From IMG/VR virus record IMGVR_UViG_2651869695_000011: a DNA stretch of 40,258 bases; one strand, written 5' to 3'. The notes beneath the pieces are model-generated. The model was not told the origin of the DNA. It searched no databases and was given only the letters and a program-made list of their open reading frames with translations. Source of the stretch: a virus. Its lineage: Duplodnaviria > Heunggongvirae > Uroviricota > Caudoviricetes. The position numbers were made by a program, and so were the translations under genes. Shown here piece by piece: positions 8,397-37,463 of the stretch (position 1 is the first letter of the stretch; each line of letters opens with the position of its first letter).

Positions 8397-8957
8397 CTAC
8401 ATTGATATATGATTCATAAAGTAGCTTAAAGATTTACTTCCCAGAAAAGAAATTTCTTTTCCTGGATATGTCGCAATAATTGAGCATGACTTATCCCCGT
8501 TAGAGGTAACAAATCCTGAATAACCTACTTGTTCTTTACCATTTTGTTGCTTGGCTAAAAAGTAGAGGTAGCTTATCTTTTTGCCCTCTGGGTAAAACTC
8601 TGCCAAACCAGTATCGGTGATTGAATATTTTATTCTCCCGCCTTGAGTAACGTTTTCCATCTCAAGTTTAGCTATGTCTTTTCTGTTGTATTCAGCATTG
8701 ATTTTCCTTTCGAAATCAATGTTGTTTTCAAATGAGTAGGAAGCAACAGTCTGAATAGATGGGAACACGTTTATCTGGATGCCTCCACAGTCGGCACAGG
8801 TATAAAGGTATGAATCAGATGGAATCCCCATAAAAGAAAACTGAGTTACCTTAAATTTATCGTTATCTCCAAAGTATTGAAGTTCGCATTTAACATTTTG
8901 CCCTGCAAAAGAAAATGCAGACATCAATATTGAAACAAAAAATATAATTGCCTTCAT
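8397..8957 (-). CDS. Secreted protein (cleavable signal peptide), function unknown; last gene of virion operon
   Basis: N-terminus MKAIIFFVSILMSAFSFA|GQ; start 2 nt after stop of upstream 850-aa virion gene; markedly AT-rich. Confidence 0.55.
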   Translation of the reverse strand: MKAIIFFVSILMSAFSFAGQNVKCELQYFGDNDKFKVTQFSFMGIPSDSYLYTCADCGGIQINVFPSIQTVASYSFENNIDFERKINAEYNRKDIAKLEMENVTQGGRIKYSITDTGLAEFYPEGKKISYLYFLAKQQNGKEQVGYSGFVTSNGDKSCSIIATYPGKEISFLGSKSLSYFMNHISM

Positions 8958-22815: not shown

Positions 22816-23112
22816 TCACTCCTGTTCACTGGCCTCTTTGGCCATCTTCAAATACTGTTCAGGGCAATGCGCCATAACGCGCTGAAACAGCTCCAGCGCC
22901 AGATTGCGTTGCCCCTCATTAAATGCCATTGCCATAGCATCCATCGGAGAGATAGCGGAAAACACCCGGCCTTTCTCCAGCACAGACCAGACAACGCGAC
23001 GCCCCTGTTCACTGCTCATGACAAAGCGAATGTCATCAATTTCACGCTGTGCCATGTCACGTTGCTTACGGGCGTTTTCTTCTTTCAGTTGATCGTCTTC
23101 GTAATCTGTCAT
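22816..23112 (-). CDS. Hypothetical head-module protein
   Basis: 98 aa, overlapping stop/start with portal and scaffold genes. Confidence 0.45.
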   Translation of the reverse strand: MTDYEDDQLKEENARKQRDMAQREIDDIRFVMSSEQGRRVVWSVLEKGRVFSAISPMDAMAMAFNEGQRNLALELFQRVMAHCPEQYLKMAKEASEQE

Positions 23113-24788
23113 TGTGATTGCCCACCCTGACCACTAACTGCATTCGCCATAGCTGACAAAACACTCGGATCCGAAGTTTTAGCTTCGCTTAGCGTCTTGG
23201 CACCCTGTGCCGCCGCCATCCCCATCGCCATCATTTGTTGCTGCTGTTGTTGCTGTGCCCGTTGCTGGCGAGCCTGCTCAACCTGTTCCTGCGGAACAAT
23301 GACGGTTGGAGACACTCCAGACATATCAGCGAATGCATCGATCGCCTGATCAACGTTGAGTTTGTCGAGAGCTTCTGGTTTCGCTTGCGCAAGTTGACCA
23401 ATGAAGTTAACCGTGGACGCCAGACTGGACAGGCCGATAGACTTCTGCGCCTGAGCCATGACGGAAATGTATTCGACCTTCAGGGGCATGCCTTCCATCG
23501 CGTCAGGCGGTGGCGGCAACATGTTTTTACGCACCATCATCGAGAAAGCGCGGTCAATGAGAGGATTAAGACATTCGTCGTTCAGACGCTCCAGAACCGG
23601 CCCCAACATCAGAAGTTTTTCTTCTTTCATTTCGATCACCGCTTCAACAGGCATCGAGCGGGTATTGATGTTCTGCAACATCATGAACAGATCGACAAAG
23701 TAGGCGCTGTTAATGATTTGACGAGTGTCCTGAATGTCTGCCACCAAATCTGCTGTACTGGGGTTAACCAGATAAGCAGGCCTGAAGCCATCCTGACCAG
23801 TAATCTGATCGATATACGTGATGTCGCCAGGAAGAAGGGAGGCGCGCTGATTCTTGAGGGAAGTCGGAGCAACCATCGGAGGATTGGTGGCTTTATCAAT
23901 CAACTGCGACTTGCGCTTCTGGAGAAGCTGCAATGCCTTAACAGGTCCAAGCGCCAGCATACCCGGGCATGATGATCCATAAACATCTTCGCCGTTAACT
24001 TCCCAGCGCGGAGCCATAATTGGAAACTCATCGAATCCGGACTCACGCAACAACTTGTCGTTATCGCCACCAACCTCGTAATAAACCGATTTGAATGGCT
24101 TGTTCTTGCTATCCAGCTTCGATGTATCGCGGTCAATGTTCGGATAAACCGAATGCATCACTTCAATCCACTTCTCGTAGGTGCCGCTTTCCCACATGCT
24201 TTTTACGGATTCGCTGACGTTATTTAGTCCGAATTCCTGAACAAGCTGACGAACAGTCATAGAGAACTTGCGAAAACAGGTGTCCACACTGCCACGAGGT
24301 GAGTTAGCCAGGTAGTAACTTCCTATCGGGAATGGCATTGTACGAATGATGTCCTCGTCATCCTCCAGCACCGCCATTGCACCGGTGCTGTATGTGCCGA
24401 GGCTTCCGTATAACTGCGGCAGCGACTGATAGAGATTCGACTTATTGAACATATCGTTCATGCGGTTCTGCACTGCCTCAAGCCACAACTTAACAGGGCC
24501 ATAATCCATCATTTCAGGATCTGGCGTAGCCAGGCGAAACCACGGACGCACGGGGCTTGTGATGCCTGACATCATGCCGCTGGCGAGAGTGCGCGCCGCC
24601 ATAGTCCCAGTCGAATCAATAATGCGTGTATTGCGTCGATCGTTACGGTTGACCTCAGAAGTCAGAAAGCGGGAACCACGCGGGTTGATGTAATCACTCA
24701 ACTCGCGCCAGTGCGGCTCGAACGACTGACGCTCGCTTTCAAGTTGTGCGAACTGTTTGTTCAATCGCTCTTTAGTTGTTTCCGCCAT
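23109..24788 (-). CDS. Portal (head-to-tail connector) protein
   Basis: 559 aa; canonical position after terminase; Gln-rich C-terminal tail as in podovirus connectors; SD GGAG upstream. Confidence 0.8.
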   Translation of the reverse strand: MAETTKERLNKQFAQLESERQSFEPHWRELSDYINPRGSRFLTSEVNRNDRRNTRIIDSTGTMAARTLASGMMSGITSPVRPWFRLATPDPEMMDYGPVKLWLEAVQNRMNDMFNKSNLYQSLPQLYGSLGTYSTGAMAVLEDDEDIIRTMPFPIGSYYLANSPRGSVDTCFRKFSMTVRQLVQEFGLNNVSESVKSMWESGTYEKWIEVMHSVYPNIDRDTSKLDSKNKPFKSVYYEVGGDNDKLLRESGFDEFPIMAPRWEVNGEDVYGSSCPGMLALGPVKALQLLQKRKSQLIDKATNPPMVAPTSLKNQRASLLPGDITYIDQITGQDGFRPAYLVNPSTADLVADIQDTRQIINSAYFVDLFMMLQNINTRSMPVEAVIEMKEEKLLMLGPVLERLNDECLNPLIDRAFSMMVRKNMLPPPPDAMEGMPLKVEYISVMAQAQKSIGLSSLASTVNFIGQLAQAKPEALDKLNVDQAIDAFADMSGVSPTVIVPQEQVEQARQQRAQQQQQQQMMAMGMAAAQGAKTLSEAKTSDPSVLSAMANAVSGQGGQSQ

Positions 24789-24802
24789 TTCAATGACTCC
24801 GG

Positions 24803-25009
24803 TTACTGGCCAAGCAGCGTTTTACCGCTGGTATTAGCGGTTGATGTGTCGCCCTGAGAACCGGTAAGCAGCGTAGAACTACGACCAGCAGCAGCGCGAC
24901 GGCGACGAGTTTCTTCGTCGCGGGCATCAACAACGGCGGCATCCTGCTCCTGTGGTGCTGCCTGAACTTCTGGTGTTGCAGGCACTGACGGTGAGCTACC
25001 CATGCACAT
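24803..25009 (-). CDS. Small acidic protein preceding portal
   Basis: 68 aa; translation-initiation region GGAGTCATTGATATG nearly identical to portal TIR GGAGTCATTGAAATG. Confidence 0.4.
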   Translation of the reverse strand: MCMGSSPSVPATPEVQAAPQEQDAAVVDARDEETRRRRAAAGRSSTLLTGSQGDTSTANTSGKTLLGQ

Positions 25010-25033
25010 ATCAATGACTCCGTACGCAATTAA

Positions 25034-25113
25034 ATTATTACCAATTTAACCACATATGATTTATTTATCGTAGATAGTTGACATTTAACGCATGAATTAT
25101 TACCTTTAAGGTA
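25034..25113. promoter_or_regulatory. Bipartite upstream element of the head operon / tRNA promoter region: ATTACC-AATTTAACCACATATG, TTGACA, palindrome TTACCTTTAAGGTAA
   Basis: AACCACATATG at 25047-25057; TTGACA at 25077-25082; palindrome at 25099-25113. Confidence 0.45.
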
Positions 25114-25436
25114 AGCAAAGAGTTCATTCCGGTTACTAACCTGACTGGCTTGTCGTTAAATTGAACAGGTGGAGTGAGCTTTTATTTTGAGCAGTACGGC
25201 GTATGGCACATGCGCCGATAGCGGTCTGGATACGTTTAAGGGGCACCCTCCCTTGCTCGGGCAAACGAACCAGCTAGCCGGAATGTGCAAGTCGAGCGGT
25301 TTTATTCCGCGCACGGGGATTCACCATCCCGGCGATTCGGTGTGACGCCTCGGAAGAGACGAGGGTACAACGATGAGAGCATTTATGGAGCCGCGACAAA
25401 GTGTGGCGCCTTAACAGGCTAAGTGCTCTCAGCGTT

Positions 25437-25513
25437 GTGGCATTAGCTCAGTTGGACAGAGCAACCGCCTTCTAAGCGGTTGGTCGCAGGTTCGAATCCT
25501 GCATGCCGCGCCA
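25437..25513 (+). tRNA. tRNA-Arg (anticodon UCU)
   Basis: Cloverleaf by hand: acceptor GTGGCAT/ATGCCGC (one U-G pair), D-arm GCTC-AGTTGGACA-GAGC, anticodon arm ACCGC-CTTCTAA-GCGGT, T-arm GCAGG-TTCGAAT-CCTGC, discriminator G, encoded CCA; close to enterobacterial argU. Confidence 0.85.
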
Positions 25514-25556
25514 GAATCACGCCTAAGGACCGTGATGCCAGAAGTTCCAGGGGCTT

Positions 25557-25598
25557 GGCGGTGATGGTTTCCCTTGAAGGACTATCACCGCCCTTTTT
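25557..25598 (+). terminator. Rho-independent terminator after tRNA
   Basis: GGCGGTGAT...ATCACCGCC 9-bp stem followed by CTTTTT. Confidence 0.6.
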
Positions 25599-25676
25599 AC
25601 AGCAGGACGCCATTGCGATGACTTCATGCTGTAAACCCGTACAGCCACGGAAGGCATAACTCATTGCTTCCAGTTC

Positions 25677-25700
25677 GCCCGGTTCGCCGGGCATTTTTTT
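25677..25700 (+). terminator. Second hairpin/terminator immediately before the SD of the moron gene
   Basis: GCCCGG-TTCG-CCGGGC followed by ATTTTTTT, ending 1 nt before SD AAGGTGAG. Confidence 0.55.
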
Positions 25701-25711
25701 AAGGTGAGATT

Positions 25712-26068
25712 ATGAGCGACCAGCAAATCGAAAAAGAAATCGTTGAGAAAGGCAAAACCGCTCCGCGAGTTACGCCTCAATATATCGAAAGCATCATTCT
25801 TGAAGAGCATTTCTTTACTGCTTATGACGGCATTCGTGCTGCCAATATGGGCGTTGGCGATTCATGGACAGCGCATAAATCTACAGACCTCCTGACTTTC
25901 TGCGTATTGGTACTGAAGAATGGCTTCACCGTCACCGGAGAGAGTGCCTGTGCAAGTCCGGAAAACTTTGATGCGGAAATTGGTCGGAAGATTGCCCGGC
26001 AGAATGCTGTAAACAAAATCTGGATGCTCGAAGGTTACTTGCTGAAGCAGAAGTTAAGCGAGCAATAA
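25712..26068 (+). CDS. Hypothetical moron protein (118 aa) between tRNA and terminase
   Basis: SD AAGGTGAG 3 nt upstream of ATG; opposite strand to flanking late genes; bracketed by terminators. Confidence 0.55.
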   Translation: MSDQQIEKEIVEKGKTAPRVTPQYIESIILEEHFFTAYDGIRAANMGVGDSWTAHKSTDLLTFCVLVLKNGFTVTGESACASPENFDAEIGRKIARQNAVNKIWMLEGYLLKQKLSEQ

Positions 26069-26158: not shown

Positions 26159-27634
26159 TTAAGCATAGGGATCGTAATCTGTGATGGCCTTGCCTTGCTG
26201 GTTCTGCTGACCGGGAATTCGCAGACGCTTCGACACAGGGAACGCAAACGTCAGCAGTAGCGCATCGCCTTTACCAGGAGAACGCCCAAGTCGCTCTTTG
26301 ATATCTTCCTTCGGTTCGATAACGATTTTACCGTCCACTCGAACTTTGTACTCTGCTGCCGACAGGTCGTCCGCTGTTTCCTGGTCATCAAGCATGCCGC
26401 CCAGCCTCAGCCATGTCTTGCATGAGTTGAACATCTCCCCACGCTTGTTGAGCATCTGCGGGTCAGTAGACGCGCCACCGAACGGAACAAGTTGCCATGT
26501 ACGACCCCAGCCGTCACCGATTGACTTCAGACCAGTTCCGTAACCGAAGTCGATGAACACTGCGTCAGCCTGGTACTGGTCTTCAAAGTCAGCGATACGC
26601 TTCGCCATAATCAGATCGTCAGTGGTCTTGTTGCCGGTCCACAGCACCTTACTATGCAGCCCCTGCCGCAGGTATATCACAGCGTCATCAACACCGGAGT
26701 ATGCCGGGTCAACGCCGATTATCACCGGAGCATGTGCCACCTGCGCAGCGGTTATCACCCGTTTCATTGCCTCGTCAGTAAGTCCGGTAGGGATAAACTG
26801 CAATTCAGATGCATCAGGGAATATTCCGCGCACACGGATTTTAACGAAGTCACTGTCTTCCCCGTAGTCATCAACCCATTTCTGCAACTGCTGTTTGTTG
26901 GTGCCTTCCACCGTCCGGCTGTCAATCTGCGCAGTTTTCCAGCGGTGTTTATACTTGCGGAAACATTCACGGAATCGCCCGGTATTACGCGTCGGGTTTC
27001 CGAACGCCACCCAAATAATCTCAGTGTCTTCGTCCGTAAGCGCACCCTCGGCAACTTCCCACACCAGATCCGCAATGTTCGACGCTTCATCGAATACCAC
27101 GATGATGCGTTTGCGCTCGTTGTGTAGTCCTGCGAATGCCTCAGTGTTGTGCTCAGACCAGGGGATTGCGTCAGCTCGCCACCGCTTGTCGTGTCCAGGA
27201 TCATTGCTGTACATCGCGGTAGCGGTGCAGGTGAACCAGTCTTTCGTGATAGCAAGGTTCGACCACTTGATAATTTCAGGCCAGGTCTTCGTTCGTAGCT
27301 GGTTGTCGGTGTTGGCGGTCACCACGACCTTACAATCCTCGCAAGTGGACATGCCCCAGTTGATCAGCATTGAGATGAATGCGGATTTACCAATACCGTG
27401 ACCCGAAGCACGTGCCAGCATAAGCGGCTGATAGCGCGTCTCTGGATTCTGCAGGTGATCACGTATCTCTCGGAACGCATCAGCCTGCCACTGACGTGGA
27501 CCTGTGGCATGTGCTAATTCAGTCCCCTCTTCCCCCCACGGGAACGCATAGAGGGCATAGCCAAGCGGATCGTGAGTGAACCCTGCAATATCCTCGATCA
27601 ACTGCTCTTCAGGAGATAACGCTGTATCTGTCAC
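26159..27634 (-). CDS. Terminase large subunit
   Basis: Walker A ARASGHGIGKS and Walker B IIVVFDEAS in N-terminal ATPase; acidic nuclease-domain residues in C-half; overlaps small-subunit stop. Confidence 0.9.
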   Translation of the reverse strand: MTDTALSPEEQLIEDIAGFTHDPLGYALYAFPWGEEGTELAHATGPRQWQADAFREIRDHLQNPETRYQPLMLARASGHGIGKSAFISMLINWGMSTCEDCKVVVTANTDNQLRTKTWPEIIKWSNLAITKDWFTCTATAMYSNDPGHDKRWRADAIPWSEHNTEAFAGLHNERKRIIVVFDEASNIADLVWEVAEGALTDEDTEIIWVAFGNPTRNTGRFRECFRKYKHRWKTAQIDSRTVEGTNKQQLQKWVDDYGEDSDFVKIRVRGIFPDASELQFIPTGLTDEAMKRVITAAQVAHAPVIIGVDPAYSGVDDAVIYLRQGLHSKVLWTGNKTTDDLIMAKRIADFEDQYQADAVFIDFGYGTGLKSIGDGWGRTWQLVPFGGASTDPQMLNKRGEMFNSCKTWLRLGGMLDDQETADDLSAAEYKVRVDGKIVIEPKEDIKERLGRSPGKGDALLLTFAFPVSKRLRIPGQQNQQGKAITDYDPYA

Positions 27635-28224
27635 TGATTACCATCCTGACGTTCTTTGAGTCGCTTCCTGGCTGCCGCTATGCGATCAGCAATTGTCACA
27701 TTCACATTAACATCCAGGCGTTCTTTGAATGCGTTGACGTCGACGTGCTTACCAATCAGTTCGAGGTTCTTCACCTTGTCAGGCCATTTAATTTTTTTGA
27801 GGATTGTCTCTATCGAATCCTCGTTCATGTTCATGATGGTCGATGACAGATCAAAGCCACTAAGCGTAGTGCGCCAGATTTTCGGCCACTCACGGATTGG
27901 TTTAAGGCTCCCATCGTCGTTGAGGATATCGATCACGTCCATCTGGTCGATCTCCACTAGGCGCATGAGAACGTAATCAGCACTGACGCGCATTCGTTTG
28001 TTGCGCTCCTCCATCAACTCGGCAATCCGTTTTTGAATGCGTTCATCGCGCATCATGACACAGGCTTTAACTGCCGCTGTATTTGGGGAGAATCCTGCGT
28101 TAATCGCTGCCTGAGTCTGGTTTTCAGGCGTTTTGATGTATGACTGGCAATAAGCCTCCTGCATTGCTGTTAGTGGCTTAAATTGCGTTGATTTGCGTTT
28201 ATAGGTTTTAGGTTCAGCAGGCAT
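27631..28224 (-). CDS. Terminase small subunit
   Basis: Terminase-small-like segment LTAMQEAYCQSYIKTPENQTQAAINAGFSPNTA; start uncertain: ATG pair 28222-28227 after SD GGTGG preferred; ORF-track TTG at 28305 (overlapping upstream stop) possible. Confidence 0.65.
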   Translation of the reverse strand: MPAEPKTYKRKSTQFKPLTAMQEAYCQSYIKTPENQTQAAINAGFSPNTAAVKACVMMRDERIQKRIAELMEERNKRMRVSADYVLMRLVEIDQMDVIDILNDDGSLKPIREWPKIWRTTLSGFDLSSTIMNMNEDSIETILKKIKWPDKVKNLELIGKHVDVNAFKERLDVNVNVTIADRIAAARKRLKERQDGNQ

Positions 28225-28301
28225 CATAACCACCGTGGTAATAGTTACCGTTGTGGTAATAGTACCATGCAAAATAAAGCCGCCATAGTTGGCGGCAGTA
28301 T

Positions 28302-28514
28302 TCAAAGTCCATCAAATTCATCGTAAAAACTCTCGTCAAGATACCCTTCCCATTTACCGCGAATGAAAATTACATCCTCGCCGCAAGGGTGCTGACTGTC
28401 GATAACTATATCCCTCCTGGCGCAACCATACTTATGCATGAGAAATTTAACCTCTTTCGGAAAATTTGCTGAGTTATCTCTCATATCTTCAAGGTCGTAG
28501 CGTATTTTTGGCAT
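28302..28514 (-). CDS. Hypothetical small protein (70 aa)
   Basis: ATG 28512-28514 with SD GAAGGTG; the GTGACATGTCAC palindrome lies immediately upstream of this SD. Confidence 0.4.
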   Translation of the reverse strand: MPKIRYDLEDMRDNSANFPKEVKFLMHKYGCARRDIVIDSQHPCGEDVIFIRGKWEGYLDESFYDEFDGL

Positions 28515-36525: not shown

Positions 36526-37463
36526 GCAACGACATCGCAAACATCAACGCACCAGTAGACACAGCAATCGCTGGAACTGCTGCAACTATTTTCAGCCCAG
36601 ACGGCTTGAACCAACTGATGAAATTCGCCGAGGTAATGGCGCAAAGCCGCGTAACGGTACCGGCGCACCTCGCCGGGAAACCAGCTGATTGCATGGCCGT
36701 GGCAATGCAGGCTGCGCAGTGGGGAATGAACCCGTTTGCCGTTGCTCAGAAAACCCATGTTGTGAACGGCACGCTAGGTTATGAAGCCCAATTAGTAAAC
36801 GCAGTTATCTCAACGATGTCGCCAACAAAAGATCGCATCAACTACGAGTGGTTCGGGCCGTGGGAACGCGTGATCGGTAAGTTTGTTGAGAAAACATCCA
36901 AAAACGGCAATCCATATATCGCACCAGGCTGGACTCTAAAAGACGAAGAAGGCTGCGGTGTTCGCGTATGGGCAACCATGAAGGGCGAGGATCAACCTCG
37001 AGTGCTTGAGTTAATGCTGTCTCAAGCACAGGTAAGAAACTCCACACTTTGGGCCAGTGATCCGAAACAACAACTCGCATACCTTGCGACAAAACGCTGG
37101 TCTCGCTTGCACTGTCCTGACGTAATCATGGGCGTCTACACACCAGACGAATTACAGGAAACGGCACCGCGCGTTGAGCGAGACATTACTCCGCAAATGA
37201 CCACTGCTGCGGGAATGAACAGTCTGATCAACGCTAAACAAGTGAAAAAGCCTGATGAGCAAACGCGTAAAGCGGATAGCCGTGATCCAGAAGAAATGCT
37301 GATGGCCTTTACCAGCGCAGCGATGAATTACAGCACTGTCTCCGAACTGGATAAAGCTTACAAATACATTGCACAAAAACTTTCAGATGATGACGAACTG
37401 CTGGCAAAAGCCACCGACGTTTACAGCGTTCGTCGGGAAGAATTAAACGAAACATCTATGTAA
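36522..37463 (+). CDS. Single-strand annealing protein, RecT/Red-beta family
   Basis: GMNPFAV and VERDITPQ segments parallel lambda Bet (GLNPW, ERDITPV); classic exo-annealase gene pair. Confidence 0.75.
   Translation: MSNDIANINAPVDTAIAGTAATIFSPDGLNQLMKFAEVMAQSRVTVPAHLAGKPADCMAVAMQAAQWGMNPFAVAQKTHVVNGTLGYEAQLVNAVISTMSPTKDRINYEWFGPWERVIGKFVEKTSKNGNPYIAPGWTLKDEEGCGVRVWATMKGEDQPRVLELMLSQAQVRNSTLWASDPKQQLAYLATKRWSRLHCPDVIMGVYTPDELQETAPRVERDITPQMTTAAGMNSLINAKQVKKPDEQTRKADSRDPEEMLMAFTSAAMNYSTVSELDKAYKYIAQKLSDDDELLAKATDVYSVRREELNETSM

Follow-up and report, generated by a model that had tools for sequence, protein, structure and literature searches.

In a phiV10-like Escherichia coli phage, the translation initiation regions of two consecutive genes, a small gp3-like gene and the portal gene, are almost identical over 16 nt. 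This near-identity is best read, with a probability that we put at roughly 60%, as an accident in the history of a single lineage, where the end of the gp3 leader was copied onto the spacer in front of the portal gene and both sites then came under independent constraint, with no need for them to be alike.

Phage type and gene neighbourhood

The window, i.e. the whole 40,258-nt stretch of DNA analysed (IMG/VR record IMGVR_UViG_2651869695_000011), belongs to a phage of the phiV10/epsilon15 type (Uetakevirus). The 4.7 kb around the repeat are 96% identical to the Escherichia phages phiV10 and vB_EcoP_ZX5 and ~80% identical to Enterobacter phage Tyrion and Salmonella phage epsilon15, of the genus Uetakevirus. 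A further 64 Synechococcus phage records match the same query at 80-90% identity, presumably via the tRNA-Arg gene only. The genes around the repeat are the following.

27631-28305, minus strand: terS
26159-27634, minus strand: terL
25712-26068, plus strand: PF13876 gene, in the insert between terL and gp3
25437-25513, plus strand: tRNA-Arg(tct), in the same insert
24803-25009, minus strand: gp3-like gene, 68 aa, homologue of epsilon15 gp3 and PhiV10p06 (ORF; PHROG 831, E=2.4e-36)
23109-24788, minus strand: portal (head-to-tail connector), 559 aa, T7 gp8 type (PF12236 Head-tail_con, E=5e-187)

The PF12236 match begins at residue 7 of the portal protein, the counterparts of which are annotated as portal or head-tail adaptor in the phiV10, epsilon15 and Tyrion records. 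Beyond the portal gene, the downstream minus-strand genes comprise a Bbp19-like gene, a gene annotated as a protease and the major capsid gene. Since the plus-strand insert separates terL from the gp3-like gene, the latter heads a separate gp3-portal-head operon. An 83-aa minus-strand ORF (25443-25694), equivalent to PhiV10p04, overlaps the tRNA-Arg gene in antisense, and the last residues of its product translate the complement of the tRNA; phiV10-type records probably annotate this ORF in error.

Anatomy of the two initiation regions

The two stretches, CGGAGTCATTGATATG in front of the gp3-like gene (25007-25022, minus strand) and CGGAGTCATTGAAATG in front of the portal gene (24786-24801, minus strand), form a direct repeat of 16 nt with 15/16 identical positions and 221 nt from start to start. 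A sequence-only reading of this DNA had quoted two 15-mers alike at 14/15 positions, and the minus strand carries both of them letter for letter (GGAGTCATTGATATG, 25007-25021; GGAGTCATTGAAATG, 24786-24800). Their identity grows by one 5' base (C), giving the 16-nt repeat, and the interval that had been proposed for the feature (24789-25025) ends 3 bases short of the portal ATG (24786-24788). The two copies are built as follows.

25007-25022, minus strand: copy 1, initiation region of the gp3-like gene, CGGAGTCATTGAT+ATG
25018-25021, 25010-25017 and 25007-25009, minus strand: Shine-Dalgarno (SD) GGAG, 8-nt spacer and ATG of copy 1
24786-24801, minus strand: copy 2, initiation region of the portal gene, CGGAGTCATTGAA+ATG
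24797-24800, 24789-24796 and 24786-24788, minus strand: SD GGAG, spacer and ATG of copy 2

The conserved leader of the gp3-portal operon ends, on its 3' side, in copy 1, and copy 2 occupies 13 of the 14 nt that separate the gp3 TAA (24803-24805) from the portal ATG. Around the start of gp3 the minus strand reads ...GCGTACGGAGTCATTGATATGTGC..., and around that of the portal gene ...CAGTAACCGGAGTCATTGAAATGGCG...; the identity stops at 16 nt, with coding sequence on both flanks. In both copies GGAG lies at positions -12 to -9, 8 nt before the ATG, and the same geometry is found in the homologues. Both ATGs open conserved coding sequences, as judged by pN/pS for gp3 and by PF12236 for the portal, and the Tyrion record annotates the ribosome-binding sites (RBSs) of both genes at the same positions. 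From this anatomy and the conserved ORFs, both copies are ordinary Shine-Dalgarno initiation regions, presumably used as RBSs.

No further copy of the motif with up to 2 mismatches occurs on either strand of the whole window, nor does any complement of it at the same threshold. The mRNA fold of the segment running from the leader through gp3 to the portal start is unremarkable (z = -1.56), and an explanation by RNA structure was rejected on this ground and for want of a complementary partner of the motif in the window. The predicted opening energy over positions -15 to +12 is 9.5 vs 7.4 kcal/mol between the two sites. The gp3 stop lies 14 nt from the portal ATG, a spacing kept in 12 of the 16 loci tabulated, and initiation at the portal gene is probably helped by coupling or re-initiation behind this stop. 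With the portal site directly behind a stop and coupling probably contributing, identical SD-spacer sequences need not mean identical rates.

Likeness measured against chance

The likeness was set against all annotated gene starts of phiV10, anchored on the start codon and compared over positions -14 to -1. PhiV10 carries the same two sequences as the window at both sites, and only 2 of its 1,431 start-anchored pairs reach 12/14, gp3/portal being one of these. Of the 45 pairs formed by neighbouring genes on one strand, the second-ranking one reaches 8/14. Under a position-specific model, 0.07 pairs with at least 12/14 would be expected genome-wide and 0.002 among adjacent pairs, while the empirical rate leads to ~0.06 expected adjacent pairs. 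A shuffle test of the motif was circular, the pattern having been taken from the same sequence, and was given no weight. The likeness is therefore real and unlikely to be due to pure chance, and its significance is moderate.

The other 12/14 pair joins the tail protein gene PhiV10p14 and PhiV10p49 (AACGGAGGTGAGTG and AAAGGAGGTGAGTA), 28 kb apart. These sites, at 8444-8457 and 37033-37046 of phiV10 (L183), serve as an internal control for RBS likeness. That an unrelated, non-adjacent pair of the same genome scores as high speaks for convergence by chance, in which the GGAG spacing and an unstructured A/T-rich spacer would be constrained and the other 7-8 matches would have come by drift. The same reading can draw on (A)CGGAG, already common to both sites in most lineages, and on the recurrence of ATTG spacers, as in the portal spacers of L012 (CTTATTGA) and L013 (CGATTGCAG) and in front of epsilon15 gp3 (CTATTGCT). 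However, p14 and p49 are alike because both sites are almost perfectly complementary to the 16S rRNA 3' end, each following the extended SD consensus AAGGAGGTGA, whereas the TCATTGA shared by gp3 and portal lies outside that consensus. The low numbers of adjacent pairs expected under the model and from the empirical rate also weigh against drift, as do the 13/14 identity in Tyrion, the identity of the L244-type leader to the phiV10 portal copy (13/13 over CGGAGTCATTGAA) and the scores of ~30 other haplotypes, none of which exceeds 7/14. Chance convergence is thus an unlikely origin of the repeat.

Distribution among relatives

In the relatives, the gp3 leader was compared with the gp3-portal spacer, in register, over positions -14 to -1. 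The sample comprises 6 phage records, 13 Enterobacterales prophages from species-dereplicated genomes with portals 65-83% identical, and, from IMG/VR, ~160 contigs retrieved by portal queries and 97 loci (~35 haplotypes) retrieved by an anchor pattern. This pattern consists of the gp3 stop and the portal start only and is hence unbiased for spacer content; the two portal-based IMG/VR scans gave almost only near-identical phiV10-type contigs.

The in-register identity is 12/14 in the window and phiV10, 13/14 in Tyrion and 12/14 in L104; L104/L186, L263 and L278 score 11-12/14. Within the Tyrion clade, L105/L257 score 7/14. Twelve other lineages from the dereplicated genomes and phage records score 2-7/14, and in the spacer-unbiased IMG/VR scan values of 11-13/14 occur only with portals of the MAETTKERLN type, against 1-5/14 elsewhere. 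In all, ~30 other haplotypes score 1-7/14, among them those of the epsilon15/SPN1S/65FD group, Klebsiella, Scandinavium, Superficieibacter, Kluyvera, Pseudocitrobacter, Buttiauxella, Pseudescherichia, Rahnella, Providencia and Erwinia, and many uncultured contigs. These unmatched lineages retain gp3, the portal and usually the exact 14-nt spacer, and their two sites share only (A)CGGAG; the epsilon15-type portal spacer, for instance, is CGGAGTAGGCAGAG. Since every matched case comes with a MAETTKERLN-type portal, the match arose once.

The comparison with homologous prophages that had been proposed on the basis of the sequence alone therefore comes out divided, the match being kept in close homologues and absent from ~30 haplotypes. 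The outcome that would have undone the proposal, conservation in no homologue at all, is not what is found, the phiV10/Tyrion clade having kept the match.

Across the IMG/VR loci L184-L280, the alleles of the gp3 leader and of the portal spacer are reassorted: GTGAGGTTATCGCT, a leader, goes with four portal spacers, and CGGAGCGCGCAGAG, a spacer, goes with two leaders. Such reassortment points to frequent recombination, or else to fast turnover of the spacer, between the leader and the portal start.

Polarity of the match and its probable origin by copying

The likeness has a direction. The GGAGTCATTGA motif belongs by origin to the gp3 leader: L244 has it there, its leader being ACGGAGTCATTGAA, next to a portal spacer of unrelated sequence, CGGAGCGCGCAAAG, and a portal of the epsilon15 type. 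Leaders of the type GGAG(T/C)(C/T)ATTG.T are common to gp3 in the phiV10, Tyrion and epsilon15 clades and in L244. Orthologous portal spacers turn over, with 1-7/14 identity at a portal pN of at least 0.10, and gp3 leaders are better conserved, the mean orthologous identity being 7.0/14 for the leader vs 5.1/14 for the portal spacer. With the motif present in the leaders of L244 and the epsilon15 clade and the portal match limited to one clade, the leader version is the original one and the portal copy is derived.

Of the two origins that the sequence-only reading had offered, local duplication gains support from this picture: the match is derived and belongs to one clade, its motif is native to the leader, and the SD consensus does not account for TCATTGA. 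Before the phiV10-type and Tyrion-type phages split, a copy of the final ~13-14 nt of the gp3 leader would have replaced the 14-nt spacer in their shared ancestor. A short-patch gene conversion or a template switch across the intervening ~8 nt would be the likely route and a crossover the alternative one, with the microhomology of GTA(A)CGGAG at the 5' side and ATG at the 3' side as anchor. Both of these anchors are already present on the two sites in most family members, and the microhomology can be seen as GTACGGAG in the leader and GTAACGGAG in the spacer of the epsilon15, L010, L013 and L018 lineages. After the copying, ordinary purifying selection on initiation regions would have held each copy while the two diverged separately. 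The copied tract measures ~13-14 nt and lies between coding sequences, with no flanking homology that would prove copying over convergence, and no intermediate or donor configuration was recovered.

The scar of a module exchange would account for the same pattern in another way, a MAETTKERLN-type portal having come from a relative devoid of gp3 by a crossover at CGGAG and having brought a leader-derived RBS with it. The match coincides exactly with one distinct portal clade (pN of at least 0.10 to all others), and the several combinations of leader and portal-spacer alleles imply that recombination in this interval occurs. However, the gp3-less fusion of leader and portal predicted by such an exchange is absent from scans of IMG/VR (strict pattern) and of the JGI metagenomes (looser pattern), and every Enterobacterales relative with a detectable portal homologue has gp3. 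We regard this exchange as quite improbable. An insertion of gp3 as a cassette with target-site duplication was likewise rejected, gp3 being present in all Enterobacterales relatives, most of them without the repeat.

Independent constraint on the two copies

The match is old, as the synonymous sites of the portal gene are near saturation between the phiV10-type phages and Tyrion (pS 0.65, pN 0.040). Its persistence is nonetheless that of any constrained site: the portal spacers of phiV10 and Tyrion are identical at 11/14 positions at a pN of 0.040, exactly as those of the unmatched pairs epsilon15-L010 and epsilon15-L018 (11/14, pN 0.04). Judged by these comparisons, persistence would reflect the normal per-site constraint, each site being conserved on its own account.

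Within the clade the two copies change one at a time. The portal SD has gone from GGAG to GGGG in L104 and L186, the portal spacer from TCATTG to TAATTG in L263 and to TCATGG in L027/L143, and the gp3 leader from GGAGTC to GGAGTA in L160; L278 also carries a single-copy change. At position -2, phiV10 has A in both copies, whereas Tyrion and L104 have T in both, which hints at concerted evolution; this candidate is broken by L105/L257 (A in the gp3 leader and T in the portal spacer of L105) and by several of the single-copy variants.

A match kept for its own sake would mean that selection equalises the initiation of gp3 and portal, or that a common trans-acting factor such as a repressor or a small RNA recognises GGAGUCAUUGA at both. 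It could appeal to a match that outlived the near-saturation of synonymous sites and to the paired states at position -2. However, no other lineage shows the match despite its conserved gp3, portal and 14-nt spacing, the copies drift separately even inside the clade (7/14 in L105/L257; the altered portal SD of L104/L186), and persistence is the same as the per-site conservation of the unmatched epsilon15 clade. Nor does the window hold a third copy of the motif or a remarkable local mRNA structure, and the two sites differ in predicted accessibility, with coupling likely at the portal. Adaptive matching is accordingly very improbable, and the selection for matched initiation rates that the sequence-only reading had put forward finds no backing in the ~30 unmatched haplotypes that kept both genes, in the independent mutations, in the ordinary degree of conservation or in the unequal opening energies. 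An adaptive retuning of the RBS in the phiV10/Tyrion lineage alone, whether of the portal:gp3 level or towards a shared trans-acting regulator, with the state of position -2 as occasional re-homogenisation by gene conversion, would be more improbable still. Copying of the leader followed by independent constraint remains the preferred reading.

The conserved block upstream of gp3

The segment directly upstream of copy 1 is itself conserved and contains the following elements.

25023-25118, minus strand: strongly conserved non-coding block (alignment of 14 lineages)
25100-25114: palindrome TTACCTTAAAGGTAA
25033-25042 and 25095-25104: 10-nt direct repeat GGTAATAATT (AATTATTACC)
3879, 6076, 6456, 7523, 15576, 28245, 32076, 32138, 34060, 34445 and 35219: ~11 other sites of the TTACC-N5-GGTAA palindrome

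These ~95 nt are nearly invariant across lineages with saturated synonymous sites. The block also holds TGTCAAT, CTACG, TGTGGTTAAATTGGTAATAATTTAAT and, by eye, the extended -10-like TGTGGTTAAAT. A strict consensus scan found no sigma-70 promoter, and a sigma-70 promoter overlapping copy 1 was discarded as a candidate. The block is probably a divergent promoter/operator for the head operon and the plus-strand tRNA/moron. One copy of the palindrome is perfect; it lies ~90 nt upstream of the gp3 ATG and coincides with a feature that the epsilon15 record labels 'repressor, lysogeny'. With 2 mismatches allowed, TTACC-N5-GGTAA is found at ~12 distinct sites of the window vs 0.13 expected, which suggests a regulator with many putative sites genome-wide, one of them directly before the head operon.

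The gp3-like gene

The gp3-like protein is Arg-rich and of low complexity, with an invariant N-terminal Met-Cys, an RRRR stretch and a C-terminal SGKTLLGQ (alignment A1). In the lineages without the match gp3 is 70-100% identical, and against 8 homologues its pN/pS is 0.02-0.19, so that gp3 is a real and strongly constrained coding gene. Searches of Pfam, NCBIfam and PDB sequences return no relative. In annotated phage records and in a search of 5.8 billion proteins, every named match is "hypothetical", the only other assignment being PHROG 831, and literature searches on epsilon15 gp3 and on phiV10 turned up nothing on the gp3 gene or the two initiation sites. The label of head gene that the sequence-only reading had given it is thus unproven.

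In the T7 record, gp6.7, whose gene lies upstream of the portal gene of T7, is annotated as a virion protein that is injected into the host cell. Like gp3, T7 gp6.7 (PF17570, T7-like_gp67) is small (88 vs 68 aa), of low complexity and encoded upstream of a T7-gp8-type portal, and it shares with divergent gp3 members a Met-Cys start and, after it, a (S)PK(I/V/M)x(T/A)P-like motif. The Providencia gp3 begins MCGGLFGGTPKIKTPP and T7 gp6.7 begins MCFSPKIKTPK, with TPKIKTPP aligning with SPKIKTPK (BLASTP E=0.001 for this best pair, over a short low-complexity region). In contrast, the two proteins belong to different PHROGs (831 for gp3, 1391 for gp6.7), their C-terminal halves are unrelated, and gp3 returns no Pfam hit with PF17570 even at E up to 10. 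The hhalign analysis of two alignments reports a probability of 2-6% over only 10-26 N-terminal columns, and local HMM searches give 5-12 bits. An outright identification of gp3 as T7 gp6.7 was rejected, as BLASTP, hhalign and local HMM searches show only a weak N-terminal resemblance. From gene position and N-terminus, gp3 may be a counterpart of T7 gp6.7.

Relation to known systems and significance

The RBSs of PhiV10p06 and PhiV10p07 (phiV10, NC_007804) are identical in sequence to the window at both sites, and the window shows no functional difference from the RBSs of phiV10 and Tyrion; what is added here is their mutual likeness and the lineages in which it occurs. The lambdoid literature describes mosaic temperate phages in which gene boundaries are marked by short conserved junctions or 'linkers'. 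The present repeat resembles these linkers in its ~15-nt length, its location exactly at gene starts, its reassorted alleles and the company of a RecE/RecT-type recombinase, encoded according to the phiV10 annotation. Unlike them, both copies lie in one genome, 221 nt apart, and flank one small gene; the product of recombination between them, with loss of gp3, was found neither in IMG/VR nor in the JGI metagenomes. Translational operators can also be shared by several mRNAs, the targets of T4 RegA being an example. As in these targets, a sequence shared between genes overlaps their SD-to-AUG intervals; unlike them, it has just two copies and is not kept in homologues, and the copies drift separately.

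Nothing in the repeat is new in kind, and its sequences are already in deposited phiV10-type genomes. The feature is real, ordinary and apparently inconsequential; it neither opens nor resolves a larger question. At most, it offers a small example of a ~14-nt tract copied between neighbouring gene starts of a temperate phage and persisting for long through the individual constraint on each RBS, and a caution that the identity of adjacent initiation regions need not imply co-regulation. For annotation, two by-products may be of more use: the gp3 family, which accompanies T7-type portals as a conserved partner and is gp6.7-like at its N-terminus, and the genome-wide TTACC-N5-GGTAA palindrome.
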